From IMG/VR virus record IMGVR_UViG_3300046819_000361: 64,000 nucleotides of DNA. One strand, written 5' to 3'. The notes beneath the pieces were generated by a model. It saw nothing but the letters and a program-made list of their open reading frames with translations, had not been told where the DNA came from and searched no databases. Shown in pieces: positions 31,522 through 47,040 of the stretch. The translations under genes were made by a program, and so were the position numbers. Origin of the DNA: a virus. Taxonomy: Duplodnaviria > Caudoviricetes. Position 1 is the first letter of the stretch. Each line of letters starts with the position of its first letter.

Positions 31522-32310
31522 CAGGATCTGCTTTTTACGGTTTCCTATCCACTAGAAGAACTCTTAAAGTTTGTGTTTGCAATTATCAAAGTGATATCGT
31601 TTCATATTTCCAATTCCACCTATTATATCACAATGAGGACAGCATACTTTAACTTGTGGTCCGCTTTTTATATCTTTGTTCCATGGAGTTTGCAATCCTG
31701 TTTTACCTTTATTCCATGGGGTTTGTCCAGTTTTTCCTTTCTTAATAGCAGACATTTTAGCTCTTTCTGCTGCTGTCCATATTTTTTTAGGTTTATTAGA
31801 TCTTTGTTCTTTCAATATTGGCATTACTCTACCCAATCTCCAATTGTCAGGAATTGCAGTGTCAATATCAATAGATCTATTTTCATGTCCGTTTGTTATC
31901 CAGCGTCTTCCATACATCGAGTTGTTGTGACCAGTTCTAGTTTTGGCAGCCAGCTGCATCTTTCGACGTAACCAACCATATAACTTATTATTTCTATTTT
32001 GATTATCACTGGTCACAGTCATCATAGTAGCAGCATATACTAGTGAGTAATTATCATATATTTTAACCAACAATAGATGTGCTACATAATGTTCTTCTGG
32101 CGTTAATTTAACCACATTGTCCGGGTCATCTTTCCCGCCCATACATCGTGGAATAATATGATGTTTCTCAAAGTATTCATTATCGAGAAACGTTCTATTT
32201 TTTCCACGATGTATTAATTTTTCATATATAATTTTATAGTTCATATAGTATTTATACTTATGAACCTACGTTCCCGGCCTGGAATGCTAATTGTATGCGG
32301 TATAGATCCT
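31522..32310 (-). pseudogene. CAGCA-scaffold copy 14 split by an HNH gene
   Basis: 5' part AGGATCT-ATA-CCGCA...CGTAGGTTCA upstream of the HNH; D-arm-like TTCTAGTGGATAGGAA and AGATCCTG downstream. Confidence 0.7.
31564..32244 (-). mobile_element. HNH homing endonuclease
   Basis: EKHHIIPRCMGG..NVVKLTPEEHYVAH; PWNKG repeats; TATAAATA late promoter just upstream. Confidence 0.88.
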
Positions 32311-32319
32311 AAAATTGTT

Positions 32320-32595
32320 TTACTTCAATTGTGACTTTCTAAACATTCGGTCCAATTTAGTATTGATATCTTTGCAGAGTTGTTCAGATCGTTCTGCTGC
32401 TTTTACTGCATTATCAACTTTTGAACTAACAGTTGATAGAGCGCGATTAGTATCTACTAATCCAGTACTCAATGTTTTTTGATTTGTAGTAATTACATCG
32501 ATTTCACCTTGTAATTTGGCGATATCTGTGTTTGTTGCACATCCAGTAACCAATGCTAAAGCACCAATCATGAATAACATATTTAATTTTCTCAT
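32320..32595 (-). CDS. Lpp/OprI-like alanine-zipper lipoprotein
   Basis: lipobox LVTGC, coiled coil, C-terminal KLDRMFRKSQLK. Confidence 0.7.
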   Translation of the reverse strand: MRKLNMLFMIGALALVTGCATNTDIAKLQGEIDVITTNQKTLSTGLVDTNRALSTVSSKVDNAVKAAERSEQLCKDINTKLDRMFRKSQLK

Positions 32596-32620
32596 TTTAC
32601 ACCTTTGTTAATTAAAATCA

Positions 32621-32711
32621 CAGGATGATATATTGTTTCGGAGCCGGGAGATTCGAACTCCCAGAAGATACCCGCTTATCGGCTTCGGCATTTTTGTGCT
32701 GTAATCACCCT
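32621..32711 (-). ncRNA. CAGCA-scaffold copy 15, anticodon-less tRNA-like cargo
   Basis: AGGGTGA-TTA-CAGCA; CGAAGCC/GGCTCCG acceptor-like; GGGAG-TTCGAAT-CTCCC; TCATCCTG. Confidence 0.75.
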
Positions 32712-33163
32712 TATTAATCAGTTAAGATAATCGTTCTTTTTCTGATTCCATAAAGCGTGTTCGTTTTACAAGTGATAAAACGAATTCTGACTCAGCGATT
32801 GATTTGGAATCAAGATCAACTCGCAAGTTCAAGAAGTAAGAAACATCATTATGAACCAGTTTAATGGAACTATAGTCTGTTACTTCCGCAGTGAATGATT
32901 TTGGAATTTGAATTACAACATCCATCAATCGTTCGAAATGTTTATCCGCATCAACAAAGTATTGTTCAACAAATGTTTTTAAGTGATGTGGTGTATTTCT
33001 TAATGTTTCGGATTTATAGTTTCTATAATTTCCGACTGAAACTGTTACCGCTTCAATAAGGTCAGTACCAGTGTATCTAGGATACTCAGGGATTAAGTTG
33101 TAAGGTTTTTTTACTTCTTGTTCAGTTACTAGCATTATATCATTCCGATAATAGTTAAAAAAT

Positions 33164-33237
33164 TGGCAGGGATACACGGATTCGAACCATGGATGACTGG
33201 ATCAAAACCAGTTGTGTTACCACTACACCATATCCCA
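33164..33237 (-). tRNA. tRNA-Gln(TTG)
   Basis: ACTGG-TTTTGAT-CCAGT, CCA. Confidence 0.92.
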
Positions 33238-33247
33238 ATTGTTATTA

Positions 33248-33365
33248 CAGGTTAGCATTTTAAGTTTTCCCAATTAAACTACATTAGTGACCAACCCTAA
33301 CGCTGGGATTCGAACCCAGAACTTTCTTTTACAATAAGATTTAATAAAATTGCTGAAACTAACCT
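33248..33365 (-). ncRNA. CAGCA-scaffold copy 16, permuted cargo (anticodon-like, T, acceptor, D)
   Basis: AGGTTAG-TTT-CAGCA; TCTT-ATTGTAA-AAGA; CTGGG-TTCGAAT-CCCAG; CGTTAG/CTAATG; TAGTTTAATTGGGAAAAC; CTAACCTG. Confidence 0.82.
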
Positions 33366-33405
33366 ATTGGTCTTATTCGCTGGTGACTAGCCTCGAATAT
33401 TCTGT

Positions 33406-33468
33406 CAGGATACACATTTTACGGGTTTGATTAGCTGTCAAATGTATGATTGTTGCTGTAGGTATCCT
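33406..33468 (-). ncRNA. CAGCA-scaffold copy 17, Ser(GCT)-like anticodon stem-loop cargo
   Basis: AGGATAC-CTA-CAGCA..TTTGA-CAGCTAA-TCAAA..GTATCCTG. Confidence 0.8.
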
Positions 33469-33524
33469 AGAACTGTTTATGCTATGTATTATACATCATT
33501 TTTATTCATTGTCAATATTTATTT

Positions 33525-33599
33525 TGGAGCGGGTAATGAGATTCGAACTCACGACATTCAGGTTGGCAACTTGAAGCTCTACCACTGAGCTATACCCGC
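33525..33599 (-). tRNA. tRNA-Gly(GCC)
   Basis: TTGCCAA loop, U73-CCA. Confidence 0.93.
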
Positions 33600-33606
33600 T
33601 CAAAAT

Positions 33607-33681
33607 TGGCGGACTGTACGGAATTTGAATCCGTGATACCACCGTGACAGGGTGGCGTGATAACCGCTTCACTAACAGTCC
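33607..33681 (-). tRNA. tRNA-Asp(GTC)
   Basis: CCACC-CTGTCAC-GGTGG, G73-CCA. Confidence 0.93.
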
Positions 33682-33803
33682 AAAATTGTTGAGTATCTAA
33701 CATCATACAATACTCGGGAGACCTCTACCAGCCTCGTTTTTATTACTGCGCCTATCCGAAGATAGTGTTTCAAATGATATTAAGGTTGCCCAGCTCTAGA
33801 GTT

Positions 33804-33880
<77 letters not shown>

Positions 33881-34186
33881 ATAATTCTATTTAAACGGAG
33901 TTTTTTCACAGGCTAATGCATGATGATATGCTATTTTCATAGACTCATATTTTTCCGTTGCTTCGCTTAATTGTTGCTGTAATTTTAGCATATCTTGTTC
34001 TACATAATCAAGATTTCTTTTAACGATATCCGATGTTCTTTTACCTGCCATATATAGACCTTTTAGAAATAAAAGAATCACCCCAGTCGGTAGCATGAAA
34101 TACCGCATATTTTTTAGATTTTTCACCATGTTTTTCATGGAATTTTTTAGTAGCTTCTTCGTTTACTATTGCGGTTCTTTTCATAC

Positions 34187-34561
34187 TTACCTCGCAAATC
34201 CACGATTTCTCAGTAATTGTGATAATTCATATTCGAATGTACCAAAATCAGACCTTTCACGCCCATAAATTGTATCAGGAACAATAATACCAATACTAGT
34301 CAATGCATTGTCAATCGATGGTTCATTAAAAATCGCCCATGGATATTCGTTTGTTTCATTGTTTAACAAATTGGCAATGTTTGCCATCTGTTCACTAGTA
34401 CCACCATTCAATACAATTGCAGTTTTATGGTTTTCAGCCCAATCTACCAATAGTTCGTTAGTTGTACCATATTTGTTGTTGATCTCTTGCAGTGCATGCA
34501 AAGATTGTATACCGTGTTGTATAGAACTCAGGTACATGTTTGTTAAAAAATAAGCTCTCAT
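34187..34561 (-). CDS. second Pth2-fold (peptidyl-tRNA hydrolase II-like) protein
   Basis: LSSIQHGIQSLHA..W..NHKTAIVLNGG..FNEPSIDNALTSIG. Confidence 0.6.
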   Translation of the reverse strand: MRAYFLTNMYLSSIQHGIQSLHALQEINNKYGTTNELLVDWAENHKTAIVLNGGTSEQMANIANLLNNETNEYPWAIFNEPSIDNALTSIGIIVPDTIYGRERSDFGTFEYELSQLLRNRGFAR

Positions 34562-34636
34562 AGTTTTCCTATATGTTACTGAGTATTTATTATTTGAGGT
34601 TATCAATCATCTGGGTAGTTACCAAAACTAATTAGG

Positions 34637-34710
34637 GGTGACCGATGGGACTTGAACCCATAAAATTCTGAATCACAATCAGGGTCGTCTACCAATTCCG
34701 ACACGGCCAC
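34637..34710 (-). tRNA. tRNA-His(GTG), no encoded CCA, flanked by an inverted repeat
   Basis: CTGA-TTGTGAT-TCAG, C73; flanks ACTAATTAGG/CCTAATTAGT. Confidence 0.88.
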
Positions 34711-34727
34711 ACCTAATTAGTCTAATT

Positions 34728-35213
34728 TTATAATAAACCACACTACGGAAGGATTCGAACCTTCGGTTGCCGTCGCACTCAACACACCAGTGTACCTCAA
34801 TACGAATCGAACGTATCTTACCACCATTTATAGTGTAGTTTATTATATAATCATATAGTAAAGTGCATTAAACGAGGGAACACGAATGCTACACATCCTC
34901 CTGTCTCCGGCCCTCAAGCTTAACATCCTCCTGGCCAGTGATGTTAAGGTGACTGATTAATGCACTTTAATATAAAATTATATAGAAACACATGCTGAAG
35001 GACGAACGGCGTATTTCCATCGAAGAACTATATCTTTCTCATCGCCGTATAGCTTCCCGCACGATATAGTCTGAGTTGCGCTTCAGGATGTGTTTTTATA
35101 TAATCATATAATAAAGCATACTACACGGAATTGAACCGTCTTCATTCAAGCCCGGAGCTCAAACTGTGATCCACACAACGCTGATCAGACGCTAATATGC
35201 TTTATTATATGAT
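34728..35213 (-). ncRNA. four tandem long-stem-closed RNA cassettes (about 110-120 nt each)
   Basis: terminal inverted repeats at about 34728-34846, 34853-34974, 34980-35102, 35103-35213; GC-richer interiors, some with TTCGAAT/TTCAATT T-loops. Confidence 0.65.
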
Positions 35214-35214
35214 T

Positions 35215-35290
35215 TGGTAGGACCGCCGAGACTCGAACTCGAATTCCCGGATTAAAAGTCCGGTGTTCTAACCAATTGAACTACGATCCC
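35215..35290 (-). tRNA. tRNA-Lys(TTT)
   Basis: CCGGA-CTTTTAA-TCCGG, CCA. Confidence 0.94.
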
Positions 35291-35356
35291 AAATTTTCTT
35301 GCCTTCTTTTTCTGTTTTTGTCTTTCGTTTCATAATTATTTCCTATGTTGTTATAG

Positions 35357-35418
35357 CAGGATACGTTTTTACTAGTTGAATTAAAAGTTCAGTGTAAATT
35401 GTTTGCTGAATGTATCCT
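35357..35418 (-). ncRNA. CAGCA-scaffold copy 18, Lys anticodon stem-loop cargo
   Basis: AGGATAC-ATT-CAGCA..TGAA-CTTTTAA-TTCA..GTATCCTG. Confidence 0.85.
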
Positions 35419-35796
35419 AAAACTGTTTATGCTGTTAATTATACAGCATTTTTATACGTTGTCAATTATTTTATCTGGATATTGTGCATCACGGCGTTCA
35501 ATTTCAGCATATGGACTGTAGCCAGGCTGTAATTCCGTGATATTAGTAAATCCATTGGTTTCTGTAATCAAACTATCATTAGAATCGATAGAACCACGAT
35601 ATTTACTACCATAACTACCTTCTAATTTACCAGTACTCGGATTAAGATCACCCCATTTAGTGTGATTACCACCGATAACTTCAATATAGTAGGTTTTACC
35701 AGTTCGGTATGAATAAACAACATGTCTACCGGTATCTTCAGTTTTTGTAAAAAATTTCTTTCGGGTTTCTTCGTCCATAATAGTTTCCTTTGTGTT

Positions 35797-35870
35797 TGGT
35801 GCTTTAGAAAGGAATCGAACCTCTGTCTGCTCGGTGTAAACGAACGGCCCTACCATTAGACGACTAAAGC
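35797..35870 (-). tRNA. tRNA-Val(TAC)
   Basis: GTTCG-TTTACAC-CGAGC, A73-CCA. Confidence 0.9.
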
Positions 35871-36353
35871 TATAATTGTTGCTTTCTTATTCCCGGCTAT
35901 CACAGAGGTTGCCACTTGTACTTCATGGTTCTCAACTTGCAGGTTCTGGCGGAACAGAATTCTCGTATTGCCAACGTGCTTTTGGTTCAAAGCATACCAC
36001 CCGTGTGTATCACCACACTTCTTATCCTCTGGGTCAGAGTATCCGTTGATTAGACGGTTCGATCTTCAAGAACTTGTTGTTCCCATTTACTTTTTAAATA
36101 GATCTTTTGACCATGCAACCAATATTCTTCTTCTGTAAAATTAGTAATAACAGCAGGGCCATGTTCATTATGATATTTCCCATCTTGGCAATAACAAGTT
36201 CTGCGGCCATCATATCTAATAATTGCTGGTCCATTTGTGTTATGCGATCTTCCATTTTTCATAAAAACTATTGTTGTATCAGATACGCTAATAGTGAGTT
36301 CAGGATTGTCTGGGTTAATATATTCCATAATTACCAAATTGTAAAGTTAAAAT

Positions 36354-36429
36354 TGGTGCTACCGACTGGGATCGAACCAGTATAGCTGGATTTTCAGTCC
36401 AGTGCATGAACCATCACTGCCACAGTAGC
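36354..36429 (-). tRNA. tRNA-Phe(GAA)
   Basis: CTGGA-CTGAAAA-TCCAG, CCA. Confidence 0.92.
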
Positions 36430-36437
36430 AAAATTAT

Positions 36438-36491
36438 CAGGATACGCTTTTTCATTTTTCAAGAATGTTTTTTAATTGCTGCATGTATCCT
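36438..36491 (-). ncRNA. CAGCA-scaffold copy 19, Ser(TGA) anticodon stem-loop cargo
   Basis: AGGATAC-ATG-CAGCA..CATT-CTTGAAA-AATG..GTATCCTG. Confidence 0.82.
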
Positions 36492-36514
36492 AAAACTGTG
36501 TAAATTATAACGTA

Positions 36515-37045
36515 TTATTTGAACATTTGCAAGATATTTTTCATAGCATCTGTATTACTATCCCATGTTTGTCCGCCAAATCGTCCGTATTCTATACGGT
36601 TATCAGCAGACCATTTATTATAATAATCGGACAATTCACCATTGCATTCCAATAGTGTATCACCGTAATTGATTATCATTACATTAGGATTCATGCAATC
36701 ACGAATTGAATAAACCTTCTCAAACGCTTCTTTAATACCCATGCCATGTTGTATTAGTACTAGAATAGCAGTTGCTGTACTTCTACTAACACCAGCATGA
36801 CAATGAATTAAAACTTTATCAGTATCAGTAAATGTTTTACTGAATTCTAAAATATTTTCAATATTTTGTAAAGTAGGATGTTGATATCCTTCTAATGGTA
36901 CTTCAATATCATGAAATCTTTCTACGTGATGTTCCACATCACAATCAAATACTTTGGTATTTGGATCAACAATGCTAATGACTTTAGTATGGGTTGGTAC
37001 CCATAAACTTGCTTCGTATAATCCTGATATAGTTATATCTAACAT
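36515..37045 (-). CDS. Cys-based (CX5R) protein tyrosine/dual-specificity phosphatase-like
   Basis: FHDI, IHCHAGVSRS, PN motif. Confidence 0.85.
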   Translation of the reverse strand: MLDITISGLYEASLWVPTHTKVISIVDPNTKVFDCDVEHHVERFHDIEVPLEGYQHPTLQNIENILEFSKTFTDTDKVLIHCHAGVSRSTATAILVLIQHGMGIKEAFEKVYSIRDCMNPNVMIINYGDTLLECNGELSDYYNKWSADNRIEYGRFGGQTWDSNTDAMKNILQMFK

Positions 37046-37061
37046 TTTTTACCTCAAAAAT

Positions 37062-37113
37062 TGGCGGGGCTATAATTGCTGTTAAAATCCTTGACAGGAT
37101 TTATTTTGGCCCC
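37062..37113 (-). ncRNA. armless CCA-ended mini-tRNA carrying a circularly permuted CAGCA scaffold
   Basis: GGGGCCA..AAATCCT-GTCA-AGGATTT-TAA-CAGCA..TAGCCCC-G-CCA. Confidence 0.65.
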
Positions 37114-37121
37114 ATTATATT

Positions 37122-37197
37122 TGGCGACCCTACCCGGTGACGATCCGGGTTTACTATCGTGAAAGGATAGTGTTCTACCAACGTAAACTATAGGGTC
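37122..37197 (-). tRNA. tRNA-Glu(TTC)
   Basis: CTATC-CTTTCAC-GATAG, G73-CCA; atypical T loop. Confidence 0.85.
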
Positions 37198-38024
37198 TTA
37201 TTTTTCGTATATTGGTTTCTACCCGTAATATTCCCAGGTGTTACCCGTTTTCCATTACAAGTTCTTGAACAATATACATTAATTGTTTTTAATTTTTTAT
37301 CACGTGTAAAATTTTTACCACAATGTGAACATGTGTACTCGTATAAAGGTTTATACCCATCGTATAGTGTATAATATTTTTCAGTATTATAAGTTTCTTT
37401 TACATATGTAAAAGCATATTTCAAATCATTAAATCGTAAAACATGTACATTATATCCAAAACTTTCAGCAACCTGTGTTTTTAAATCCACTGATTTTTGA
37501 TTTTCATAACCTTTTGTTTCTATTATAGTTTTATTATCCGATAAAATAAAATCAGGGTAATATTTAATACCATTTCTTTCCAAATAACCGTCAAATCTAG
37601 AAAATTTAATATTATGATCTAAATTGTATATTACCCAGCATAATTCATATGTTGATCCACAATAAATGCCATTATAATATCCTGATTTTGATCTACCAGA
37701 ACCATTTCTATATCCACCTATGTGTTTGGAACTACATTCTTTTGAACAATATTTTTTATTACTCGTTTTTATTATTCTAAAATCTGTTCCACACTCTACA
37801 CATTGTCTAATCTCACGAATAGCAAATTCTTTGCCTTTTGTAGAGGCAGGTTTAATACCTAGCTTCTTAAATGTAAGAGATGTTTTTATCTTTTGTTCTT
37901 CACTTGGTTTCCATCCAGAGTCTTTCCGTTTTCTGTTATTATATTTCGCTGAACACGATCTATTACAAAACTTTTTTGCATCTTTACTGATTAAAGTGTT
38001 TCCACATTCTAAACAATTATTCAT
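37188..38024 (-). mobile_element. putative PD-(D/E)xK homing endonuclease with Zn-ribbon repeats
   Basis: CxxC..KFCNRSC repeats, STYEL, YYPDF..IIETKG; lies between a tRNA-Glu 5' remnant and an intact tRNA-Glu. Confidence 0.7.
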
Positions 38025-38081
38025 CTGTAATCTCCATATAGAGTATTTATATGGAATTGAACTTTATTGCATTTTTTGATT

Positions 38082-38111
38082 ATAGTGTTCTAACCATTAA
38101 ACTACCAGGAT
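38082..38111 (-). pseudogene. 5' half remnant of a tRNA-Glu-like gene
   Basis: ATCCTGGTAGTTTAATGGTTAGAACACTAT shares TAGTTTA..AGAACACTAT with the downstream tRNA-Glu. Confidence 0.65.
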
Positions 38112-38231
38112 ATAAACTTTTATATAGAAACACACTCGTTTCTGAGCTTTCGGTATGTATGCCTACACTTTAGGATAGCCCCTGCGTCCAGTTGCTCAGT
38201 ATCCCTACCGTGAATGTGTTTTTATATAAAT

Positions 38232-38310
38232 TGGTCTCCGTAGCAGGATTTGAACCTGCGAATCCTCTCGATCCCAAATCGAGCGCTCTACCAAACTGAG
38301 CTATACGGAG
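38232..38310 (-). tRNA. tRNA-Pro(TGG)
   Basis: CTCGA-TTTGGGA-TCGAG, CCA. Confidence 0.93.
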
Positions 38311-38323
38311 ATAATTAAAATAT

Positions 38324-38416
38324 TGGTGGGTGTCCACGGATTCGAACCGCGAATGTTTACCACGAGGGACTTGATTTACAGTCAAGAGAGGCACACGCCA
38401 TAGCCTCAAGACACCC
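38324..38416 (-). tRNA. tRNA-Tyr(GTA)
   Basis: CTTGA-CTGTAAA-TCAAG, long arm, CCA. Confidence 0.9.
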
Positions 38417-38826
38417 AATAATTTATAACACTCTCCCACTATGTGTTTAGACGGTTCGTAGCCGAATGAAGAGTGTATATTAAAACATACTCACTTTAAC
38501 TTGTCAAGAACCGTAATTCTTAATGCTGATCTAGTATGTTTTAATATTAAAACACACTGGTGGGTCGTTCAAATCCACTGTCTACATTCCGTAGAAATCA
38601 AATTCTACTATTCTCAATGTGTTTTAATATTTCTAGGTTTTTCCACACACCACACAAGGTGCTTCTCATCCCCTAGACCGCCCTCATTAATAGCTCATTT
38701 TTATAGTGGTGAGCAGAATCGCGTTTTCTAATAGAGACCAATATTTCATTCTCTATACCACTGTACTTCATATTATAATCTGTGTTTCTGTGTCTGTCAA
38801 CTACTTTTTTTAAGGAGTCTAAAACT

Positions 38827-38906
38827 AAAAAACCCTGAGAGTTTTCACTTTCAGGGTTCTTTGAAAAATTAACTTATAATATTAAATTATGTCTTCAAAG
38901 AACCCT
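38827..38906 (-). promoter_or_regulatory. attenuator: overlapping antiterminator and intrinsic terminator
   Basis: AGGGTTCTTTGAA (38894-38906) pairs over 13 bp with TTCAAAGAACCCT (38853-38865), which overlaps terminator AACCCTGA..TCAGGGTTTTTT (38827-38858). Confidence 0.75.
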
Positions 38907-39024
38907 CACGATACTCCGGTGTGCGATCATTAATTAAACTAAATGCACACCATACAGACGCAATCGAGCCGCCTTTTAAGGTTGATTGTAGTTTAAATTG
39001 TTGATGTAATGATTGCATTTCCAT
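38887..39024 (-). CDS. candidate leader peptide containing all 20 amino acids
   Basis: MEMQSLHQQFKLQSTLKGGSIASVWCAFSLINDRTPEYREGSLKT; last codons overlap the antiterminator 5' strand. Confidence 0.65.
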   Translation of the reverse strand: MEMQSLHQQFKLQSTLKGGSIASVWCAFSLINDRTPEYREGSLKT

Positions 39025-39075
39025 TTGTATCAATTTTCCTTTAATTTCATCGGTTGACCCCAACTGATGAAGCGT

Positions 39076-39104
39076 ATTATACAATTATTTAGTTTCTTTG
39101 TCAA
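39076..39104 (-). promoter_or_regulatory. sigma70 consensus promoter of the tRNA-array leader
   Basis: TTGACA-N17-TATAAT. Confidence 0.8.
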
Positions 39105-40449: not shown

Positions 40450-40884
40450 ACTTTTGCCCCCATAAAGGGAGCAAAAAAATAATTTCAACTGAGTTGACTT
40501 CATTAGTAGAGTTACACTGGTTACAGAGGCGGTTGGCCGATACCTCGAAGTGCGTTTTTGTTTCTGTTGTCCAACGGTGGCATTAGGAAAATACTCTACC
40601 ATATTCCTAATACGTCCAGGAATTACCTGGTCATTTAGCCTTTTTATCTTTTGTTTAAACATTCGAAATTGGTTGTACGTAGGCGTATCCAATCATCATT
40701 TGCATCACAATGTGCAAGTAGTCGAATGAGTCGCTGCTTCTACTCAGCTGTTTCCCTCCATGCGAAGAACATTCCATTTCCTGGGGCACCTGTCAAACCA
40801 CCGGTGCGAGTGTATCAGAAGTGTATAGCCTGAAAAAGTGCCTGTGAAATCATATTTATCGTTGCCTAAATTTATTTGCCTAAT
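40450..40884 (-). ncRNA. candidate large structured ncRNA (about 430 nt)
   Basis: no credible ORF, GC-richer, several hairpins; TAGACA-N17-TATAAT at 40891-40919 and terminal hairpin TTTTGCTCCC-TTTAT-GGGGGCAAAA. Confidence 0.45.
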
Positions 40885-41470: not shown

Positions 41471-41636
41471 AATTTTTCCTTGAATAATTTTTGGCATAAA
41501 AAAACCCAAGCCAACTTGATGGATCAAGCCGATACTTGGGTAAAAAAAGGAGTTTTTTAAATTGTTAAAAAGTCTTGTAATCTATAACTGTTTCATAATT
41601 CTTATTATATCAAATTTTATATTGTATGTCAATTAC

Positions 41637-42261: not shown

Positions 42262-42336
42262 TGGTGCACCCGATGGGATTCGAACCCATTGTCGCAAGTT
42301 TTAGAGGCTTGTGCTATACCTAGTAGCTTCGGGTGC
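42262..42336 (-). tRNA. tRNA with CTA anticodon (amber suppressor candidate)
   Basis: GCACCCG/CGGGTGC-A-CCA; CAAG-C-CTCTAAA-A-CTTG centres CTA. Confidence 0.75.
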
Positions 42337-46324: not shown

Positions 46325-46670
46325 TAGGTATTTTTGGTTATAAGGTATTTCCTACCCCAGAATTCGCTGGTTATTAAGCAGCGATAGCATCAAAGATGCC
46401 ATCTACAGTGTAGAATTCAAATTTAGAATCGTTTGCGATTACTATGTTTATGCTGATTAGGTCAGTCATATCTCCTGTTGCCTTCTCCACTATTACACCA
46501 CGTCGAAACCAACTGTCATTCCCATCATAAAAACATAGGTACTCCCCTTTGAAGGGGCAGGGAGTTTATGGCTATGGCCCCACTCTGATACCAACCTATG
46601 TTCTTATGGTGGAAATGCCCGGGGTCGAACCGGGGTCCGCAATGCCTTTATTTTGAAGGAATAACAACAA
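46325..46670 (-). ncRNA. ssrA: permuted (two-piece) tmRNA
   Basis: acceptor piece GGACCCCGGTTCGACCCCGGGCATTTCCACCA (CCA at 46607) precedes 5' end GGGAATGA..TTCGAC (46523; G3:U70); tag ANDSKFEFYTVDGIFDAIAA* at 46374-46436; outer ends approximate. Confidence 0.9.
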
Positions 46671-47040
46671 TTCTGTATATCTATACCGCACACCCTTGCG
46701 ACTTCAGCCTGTTAAGGTAGAGCTACTAAATAGAAGTCATAGAGTTCTATATGTTCGCATAGATAAGTTAAATATCTAACTATGGTTCAATAATGGCGTA
46801 CCACTCCTAATCGTTTGTACTATGTACCGGATTTAAGTTAGACTATTTGCTTATTATAGCATTATATTTATATTTGTCAAGAATTATTTGTTACGTTTTA
46901 CACGTGCTTTTGTTCTTGGTTGACCGGTTACTTTGTTATTTCTACTTCTAGCCATTTTCGGTACCTCTGTTGTTTAAGATGAGCTTATTATACATCAGCC
47001 AAACGTGATGTCAAGCATTTTTTAATAAATACTACTATTA

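Follow-up and report, generated by a model that had tools for sequence, protein, structure and literature searches.

A candidate ribosome-dependent transcription attenuator at the head of a phage tRNA array

Introduction

Phage tRNA arrays are usually regarded as passively expressed cargo. In a large uncultured phage (IMGVR_UViG_3300046819_000361; the whole stretch of DNA analysed, 64,000 nt long, is referred to below as the window) the tRNA genes are preceded by a promoter, a short open reading frame (ORF) and two overlapping hairpins, raising the question of whether transcription of the array may respond to translation. An earlier note on this DNA had read the locus as an attenuator in which complete translation of the leader stops transcription and ribosome stalling lets it continue; from the presence of all 20 amino acids in the leader peptide, it had further proposed a general sensor of tRNA shortage.

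Our analysis gives a slightly better than even probability (about 0.55) that the element is a ribosome-dependent, leader-peptide transcription attenuator heading the tRNA array; the direction and size of its effect are what we infer from sequence. If this is true, phages gauge decoding capacity and adjust their tRNA supply accordingly, which would bear on how large phages deal with host tRNA degradation, tRNA-targeting defence nucleases and codon-usage mismatch. Leader-peptide attenuation, familiar from amino-acid operons and whiB7, would then extend to RNA genes.

Organisation of the leader element

Re-reading of the sequence placed every part of the element on the minus strand and left its coordinates unchanged. 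From 5′ to 3′, promoter P1 is followed by a 5′ stem-loop, a 45-codon ORF, a putative antiterminator hairpin, an intrinsic terminator, a second promoter (P2) and the tRNA array:

39076..39104 (−): promoter P1, TTGACA-N17-TATAAT, 12/12 consensus matches (TTGACA 39104–39099, TATAAT 39081–39076, 17-nt spacer)
39047..39070 (−): predicted 5′-terminal stem-loop of the transcript, GGGU loop, beginning at about +1
39037..39041 (−): Shine–Dalgarno-like AAGGA, 12 nt ahead of the ATG, kept in the window clade
38887..39024 (−): leader ORF, 45 codons plus TAA (38889–38887), all 20 amino acids
38913..38919 (−): CCGGAGU (Pro-Glu-Tyr codons), complementary to the terminator 3′ arm
38892..38906 (−): 5′ arm of the putative antiterminator hairpin, within codons 40–45 (E40–T45)
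38870..38889 (−): upper part of the same hairpin (A/U stem and loop), holding the stop codon
38853..38867 (−): 3′ arm of the same hairpin, ending in CCCU (38856–38853), the 4 nt with which the terminator stem opens
38827..38856 (−): intrinsic terminator, stem 38856–38833, U6 tract 38832–38827
38772..38800 (−): promoter P2, perfect consensus, 27 nt past the terminator
22514..38416 (−): tRNA array with interspersed ORFs and small RNAs; its 24 tRNAs serve all 20 amino acids

The structural claims of the earlier note were thus borne out: the perfect promoter, the 45-codon ORF with its complete set of amino acids, the last codons forming the 5′ strand of a perfect 13-bp hairpin whose 3′ strand overlaps a terminator, and the 24 tRNAs downstream were all found as described. 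Its caveat that a second consensus promoter and several internal ones lie past the terminator holds as well (P2 plus eight more perfect matches).

P1 follows an A/T-rich, UP-element-like tract (about 39130–39105), and both P1 hexamers are unchanged across all relatives. The 5′ stem-loop shows compensatory changes in four of them (L016, L024, L032 and L071), and other hairpins occupy its position in lineages L033 and L035. The leader ORF starts 45 nt past the predicted +1. Its Shine–Dalgarno spacing of 12 nt is long beside the 4–9 nt typical for genes of the window phage, and L033 and L035 have a weak motif or none; both points speak against the attenuator.

The putative antiterminator hairpin has 13 Watson–Crick pairs, or 15 counting G-U and A-U; with the upper stem included it is predicted to reach about 22 bp with an internal loop. 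UUCUUUGAA is a segment of its 5′ arm and faces UUCAAAGAA, which lies outside the shared CCCU. The terminator stem comprises nine pairs with one mismatch and a GAAA loop, with a predicted energy of −12 kcal/mol once a ribosome occludes the 5′ arm of the upstream hairpin. The RNA from P1 to the terminator is about 240 nt long and the whole element about 280 nt; the leader folds with a z-score of −6.0 relative to shuffled sequence. The element amounts to a compact part built from consensus E. coli-type signals.

Distribution and genomic position

A protein search with the 45-aa peptide, followed by profile searches, yielded 13 distinct homologous peptides of 42–47 aa, reaching down to about 48% identity. 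Comparison at the DNA level showed the element to be kept in about nine related lineages, all of them phage-like or metagenome contigs, which in some cases reach about 300 kb. In every relative with downstream sequence it heads a tRNA array, and this position is retained despite different upstream genes and a different tRNA order in L024, L033 and L035.

Wider searches did not extend this set. The window DNA had no match among 50,697 deposited phage genomes, and the neighbouring kinase gene, used as a synteny anchor, led to 15 loci, none with the element or downstream tRNAs. A degenerate DNA pattern gave 42 matches in viral contigs, of which only those from already known lineages were real and the rest due to chance; a 19-mer search of 185,579 bacterial and archaeal genomes returned six chance matches, none with the element; and a peptide-pattern scan of metagenome contigs found only three loci, each from known lineages. 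No part of the element in the window exceeded the Rfam gathering thresholds, the best match being His_leader (23.4 bits against a threshold of 49, E = 0.11), and the leader peptide matched no Pfam or PHROG family.

Several other genes and RNAs were identified around the element. Among the PHROG matches in the window are genes of the tellurite-resistance type, HNH endonucleases and a T7-like protein kinase. The window also encodes a permuted two-piece tmRNA of the beta-proteobacterial type (46338–46720, minus strand; RF04321 at 124.6 bits, RF01850 at 97.8 bits), as do relatives L005 and L006 a permuted tmRNA, and a Polynucleobacter-1 RNA motif in the early region upstream of the leader (RF01718, 64.6 bits; 40657–40812, minus strand). 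This RNA motif and the tmRNA type hint at a freshwater beta-proteobacterial host for the window phage. An L033-type contig, L077, carries Pfam matches to HSP20, ClpS, heme oxygenase and ferredoxin-dependent bilin reductase (positions 435–2412); as this gene set is cyanophage-like, the L033-type lineage may infect a host unlike that of the window phage.

Coding signature of the leader ORF

An attenuator of this kind depends on passage of a ribosome, and the leader ORF bears the marks of a maintained reading frame. It is open in 9/9 lineages, with 2–7 stop codons in the two other frames, and a shuffled leader would keep it open with a probability of 3–6% per lineage. Indels within the ORF measure 3, 3, 3, 6 and 3 nt, those in the flanks 1–2 nt. 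Pairwise dN/dS values are 0.4–0.55, rising to about 1 for the poorly alignable L024. Together, the open frame, the in-frame indels and the dN/dS of 0.4–0.55 indicate that the frame is maintained and the peptide weakly constrained. We consider the ORF to be probably translated, with transcription and translation coupled.

In every lineage the stop codon lies inside the hairpin loop. L035 is informative in this respect: one additional base before the 5′ arm causes the RNA motif GGGUUC..GAAGAC to be read in another frame, so that the peptide ends in GFEDGIGLA instead of GSLKT, and the ORF still terminates within the loop. This frame change argues that in L035 the RNA and ribosome passage are conserved, and not the peptide. 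Elsewhere, a peptide block (T/A)PEYR.GS is preserved through synonymous changes between the window and L033, hinting that the peptide itself has a role; Pro-Glu-Tyr is the sole invariant tripeptide of the leader.

Hairpins predicted to be mutually exclusive

The earlier note had suggested looking for stem covariation in related phages, and this was clear for one of the two helices. The terminator occurs in the variants UGA/UCA, UGG/CCA, AGG/CCU, CAGG/CCUG and UAGA/UCUA; in alignment A4, 91% of its cells pair and three pairs vary on both sides. Its covariation score was matched by 0/500 shuffles, and controls slid along the alignment collapse. The antiterminator stem is almost invariant, with one covarying pair and 64/500 shuffles scoring as high, and so gives little covariation signal of its own.

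The arrangement of the two helices is nevertheless retained through considerable sequence change. The hairpin loop is wholly exchanged in L032 and L071 with the stem kept, and L033 has a rebuilt hairpin (GGGGUCU..GGAG / CUCC..AGACCCC), in which the shared segment is CCCC and is matched by GGGG in both partner arms. The arm overlap (CCCU or CCCC, and CCC alone in L071) is present in every lineage.

Folding supports a switch between two states. For a ribosome-free RNA that has emerged through the whole terminator stem, the full hairpin has a predicted base pair probability of 0.68–0.74 and the outer terminator pair one of about 0.05. Blocking the region up to +10 past the stop codon, as a ribosome halted there would, lets the terminator form, at −9 to −13 kcal/mol. 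The folds of all lineages showed this pattern, the exception being L071, for which the predicted minimum free energy (MFE) structure lets a 6-bp terminator coexist with the hairpin.

The geometry is compatible with such a switch. A ribosome covers about 12–13 nt beyond its A site. In the window, L032, L033 and L035, the 3′ arm starts 19–23 nt past the first base of the stop codon, which places it just past a ribosome stopped there.

Two further pairings were noted. The invariant CCGGAGU, spanning the Pro-Glu-Tyr codons, pairs with the terminator 3′ arm in the ribosome-free MFE structure of most lineages, and L016, L033 and L071 show what look like co-changes; CCGGAGU may form an outer helix that reinforces or locks the antiterminated state, or may be a coincidence. 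A long-range helix between GAUAC in the start-codon spacer and GUAUC, seen in a single-sequence fold, was rejected, as it is not conserved in L016. The folds contained no 1:2 anti-antiterminator or pause hairpin, and no segment that pairs with the 5′ arm.

Promoters beyond the terminator

What the terminator can gate depends on the promoters behind it. P2, from which the array could be expressed around the attenuator, is kept in the window clade and is absent from L033 and L035. Eight further perfect promoters lie inside the window array, whose first tRNA (Tyr) starts at 38416; between 21989 and 38800 (minus strand) there are in all nine sigma-70 promoters with 12/12 matches, every one on the transcribed strand, the opposite strand having none. 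Given P2 and the eight internal promoters, control of the 24 tRNAs by an attenuator can be no more than partial. In the window phage, P2 and the internal promoters would provide most of the array transcription, the switch merely modulating it.

L033 and L035 are organised differently. Tandem promoters with near-consensus sequences, in repeat units of about 77–95 nt, lie upstream of the leader: four in L033/L077 (L033 3693–3950) and two in L035 (3835–3957). On the transcribed strand of L077 and L035, no site with at least 9/12 matches lies past the terminator and ahead of the first three tRNAs (Tyr, Pro and Met in L077; Met, Asn and Tyr in L035). The fourth tRNA of L077 (Ile) is preceded by a weak 9/12 site and followed by the next strong promoter (11/12). 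Transcription of the first three tRNAs from sigma-70-type promoters therefore needs read-through of the terminator in these two contigs, and the terminator must accordingly be conditional or leaky.

In several relatives a T5orf172 (homing-endonuclease-like) gene is inserted at P2 (L018 1784–2317, L021 1935–2432, L071 4246–4755). Its called ATG overlaps the P2 −10 box, so that a transcript started at P2 lacks this start codon; translation from this ATG would take place only on P1 transcripts reading through the leader terminator.

The array begins with Tyr and Pro (38232–38416 in the window), followed by Glu in most window-clade relatives. The resemblance to the Pro-Glu-Tyr of the leader may be a coincidence; judged by geometry, stalls at these codons would bring no benefit for read-through.

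Proposed mechanism and competing explanations

In the mechanism that we favour, host RNA polymerase would start at P1 and transcribe the 42–47-codon leader ORF. With no ribosome on the last codons, whether translation is slow, has yet to begin or has stalled up to about codon 35, the antiterminator would form and sequester CCC, and polymerase would continue into the first tRNA block. A ribosome keeping pace to the end of the ORF would melt the 5′ arm, its footprint stopping short of the 3′ arm; the freed 3′ arm would pair with the terminator 3′ arm and transcription would stop at 38832–38827. The result would be negative feedback, with good decoding giving less transcription from P1 into the tRNA genes and poor decoding giving more. 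Since there is no 1:2 helix, an untranslated leader should read through and not be super-attenuated.

The attenuator logic of the earlier note thus gains comparative support, namely from the conserved frame, the stop codon in the loop, the arm overlap, the covariation of the terminator, the position at the head of the array and the two lineages with no promoter just after the terminator. In the window phage it cannot be the main control of the tRNA genes, in view of the nine downstream promoters. With its 5′ hairpin and terminator, the leader transcript would also make a stable free-standing small RNA. By analogy, a dual role is possible, in which RNA or peptide act besides attenuation as do rnTrpL and peTrpL, an RNA and a peptide derived from an attenuator (PMC6614838, PMC7968998).

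The foremost competing explanation, which we regard as rather unlikely, is a free-standing early gene for a phage peptide of 42–47 aa, perhaps small and membrane-associated or active in host takeover, with its own promoter and a constitutive terminator. The hairpin would then only stabilise the 3′ end, and the array would be transcribed from P2 and the internal promoters. The hydrophobic centre of the peptide, the retention of (T/A)PEYR.GS and of a Trp, the codons that differ synonymously between the window and L033, and a dN/dS below 1 all fit such a gene, as do hairpins at both the 5′ and 3′ ends of what could be a stable mRNA, the keeping of P2 in eight lineages and the many internal promoters of the window array. 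However, a dN/dS of 0.4–0.55 is weak constraint for a functional peptide, and no Pfam or PHROG family accommodates it. The frame shift in L035 discards the conserved C-terminus and retains the RNA arms and the stop codon in the loop. Also against a peptide gene, the non-coding loop and the arm overlap are conserved, and L033 and L035 have no promoter past the terminator and ahead of the first tRNAs.

Early transcripts of phage T7 carry processing hairpins of the RNase III type. A similar processing or stability hairpin beside a leaky terminator, with constitutive read-through and an overlap that has no switching role, is a quite improbable reading of the element. Its size (about 22 bp with an internal loop) is that of an RNase III substrate, and a T7-like protein kinase, of a family that modulates RNase III according to its PHROG description, is encoded just upstream in the window phage and relatives. 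Nevertheless, the upper stem and loop differ between lineages, the overlap with the terminator is kept in L033 by coordinated changes, and processing leaves unexplained why an open frame runs through the 5′ arm with its stop codon in the loop.

Least probable of all, in our judgement, is a trans-acting non-coding RNA, about 240 nt long, that starts at P1 and ends at the terminator and has an incidental ORF: it would have its own promoter and terminator, a strong fold (z = −6.0) and several nucleotide-invariant blocks, among them non-coding sequence past the stop codon, but the frame is open in 9/9 lineages against a 3–6% chance in each, indels are in frame, synonymous changes outnumber non-synonymous ones, conservation is poor in the middle part of the RNA, where no helices covary, and there is no Rfam family, the best match (His_leader, E = 0.11) being sub-threshold.

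Amino-acid composition of the leader peptide

The claim that the leader is a general tRNA-shortage sensor rests on its amino-acid content. Only about 1.6% of random 45-mers with the composition of the window phage hold all 20 amino acids, and among 56 small ORFs in the window the leader alone has the full set. Most amino acids occur one to three times, with no tandem codon run. The earlier note had proposed to look for the same completeness in related phages. It was found in 9 of the 13 leader peptides, and the others lack one to three amino acids (two have no Phe, one no Cys, and one no Ala, Asp or Trp), giving a range of 17–20 types.

In a retention test, residues identical to the window were fixed and the remainder randomised. 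The resulting p-value was 0.003 or 0.21, depending on the clade representatives chosen, and retention of all 20 amino acids was therefore rejected as a robust statistical signal. A strict correspondence between the residues of the leader and the tRNAs behind it fails in L077, where a leader without Cys precedes an array with tRNA-Cys. The amino-acid diversity of the leader is no more than suggestive of a selected property; the general sensor is only partly supported, with the complete peptides speaking for it, and the four incomplete ones, the unstable p-value and the L077 leader against it.

Position within the leader also matters. Geometrically, the 5′ arm stays free as long as the ribosome waits no further along than about codons 35–36. 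Codon 38, the only one for Tyr, is too near: a ribosome stalled there would cover the base of the arm, and CCC would be uncovered and termination favoured.

We put forward only tentatively, and with more doubt than confidence, that the leader is a meter of decoding speed, its near-complete amino-acid set tying ribosome transit to every tRNA species and giving feedback on the supply of replacement tRNAs. If this were true, depletion or cleavage of any tRNA, through starvation or host anticodon nucleases, would open the terminator and yield more replacement phage tRNAs, a feedback loop both homeostatic and counter-defensive.

Comparison with known attenuators

The closest analogue is the uORF of whiB7, whose attenuation is experimentally established in mycobacteria: efficient translation leads to a Rho-independent terminator, and stalling to an antiterminator and read-through (bioRxiv 10.1101/2023.06.02.543512). 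The composition of that uORF, which in M. smegmatis includes every amino acid but Cys, sets which deficits of amino acids, tRNAs or synthetases are sensed (bioRxiv 10.1101/2023.06.02.543512). Both systems have a fairly long uORF of diverse amino acids, joined to a terminator/antiterminator logic that is predicted for the phage, and the broad amino-acid content of the phage leader agrees with the whiB7 type. The likeness is functional only, with no sequence homology. whiB7 is bacterial, controls a transcription factor and has an alanine-enriched uORF, whereas the phage element precedes tRNA genes and has no enriched residue.

The classical leader-peptide attenuators of amino-acid operons are trpL, hisL, leuL, pheL, thrL and ilvL. 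Like the trp/his type, the phage element has a promoter-proximal short ORF, helices predicted to be mutually exclusive, a similar distance from the stop codon to the terminator, and an arrangement in which a ribosome at the end of the ORF would free the terminator 5′ arm. Unlike it, the phage leader has no run of codons for one regulating amino acid and no 1:2 or pause hairpin, and the genes behind it are tRNAs instead of biosynthetic enzymes. As judged from sequence, the element shows the general features of leader attenuators: a promoter-proximal ORF, an intrinsic terminator before the putatively regulated genes, an antiterminator that would exclude it, and an ORF overlapping the 5′ strand of the latter. 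The classical systems are summarised in PMC6614838 and PMC3082878.

A third comparison is with toiL of topAI-yjhQ, a regulatory uORF that senses antibiotics (PMC12121999). In both, a uORF would serve as a general sensor of ribosome stalling that controls downstream expression. The toiL system responds to drugs and reportedly works through Rho or translation effects; the phage element would be an intrinsic terminator switch. Our literature search found no published leader-peptide attenuator for phage tRNA genes.

Other features upstream of the array

Two more features were observed upstream of the array, both on the minus strand. A tRNA with a CUA anticodon (amber suppressor; designated Pyl by ARAGORN) lies at 42262–42336 and is conserved in L023, L025, L026 and L029. 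At 41498–41632 there is a second cassette, consisting of a perfect promoter (41632–41604), a four-codon ORF (ATG AAA CAG TTA TAG) and a terminator-like hairpin with a T-run, followed by the ATG of the next gene.
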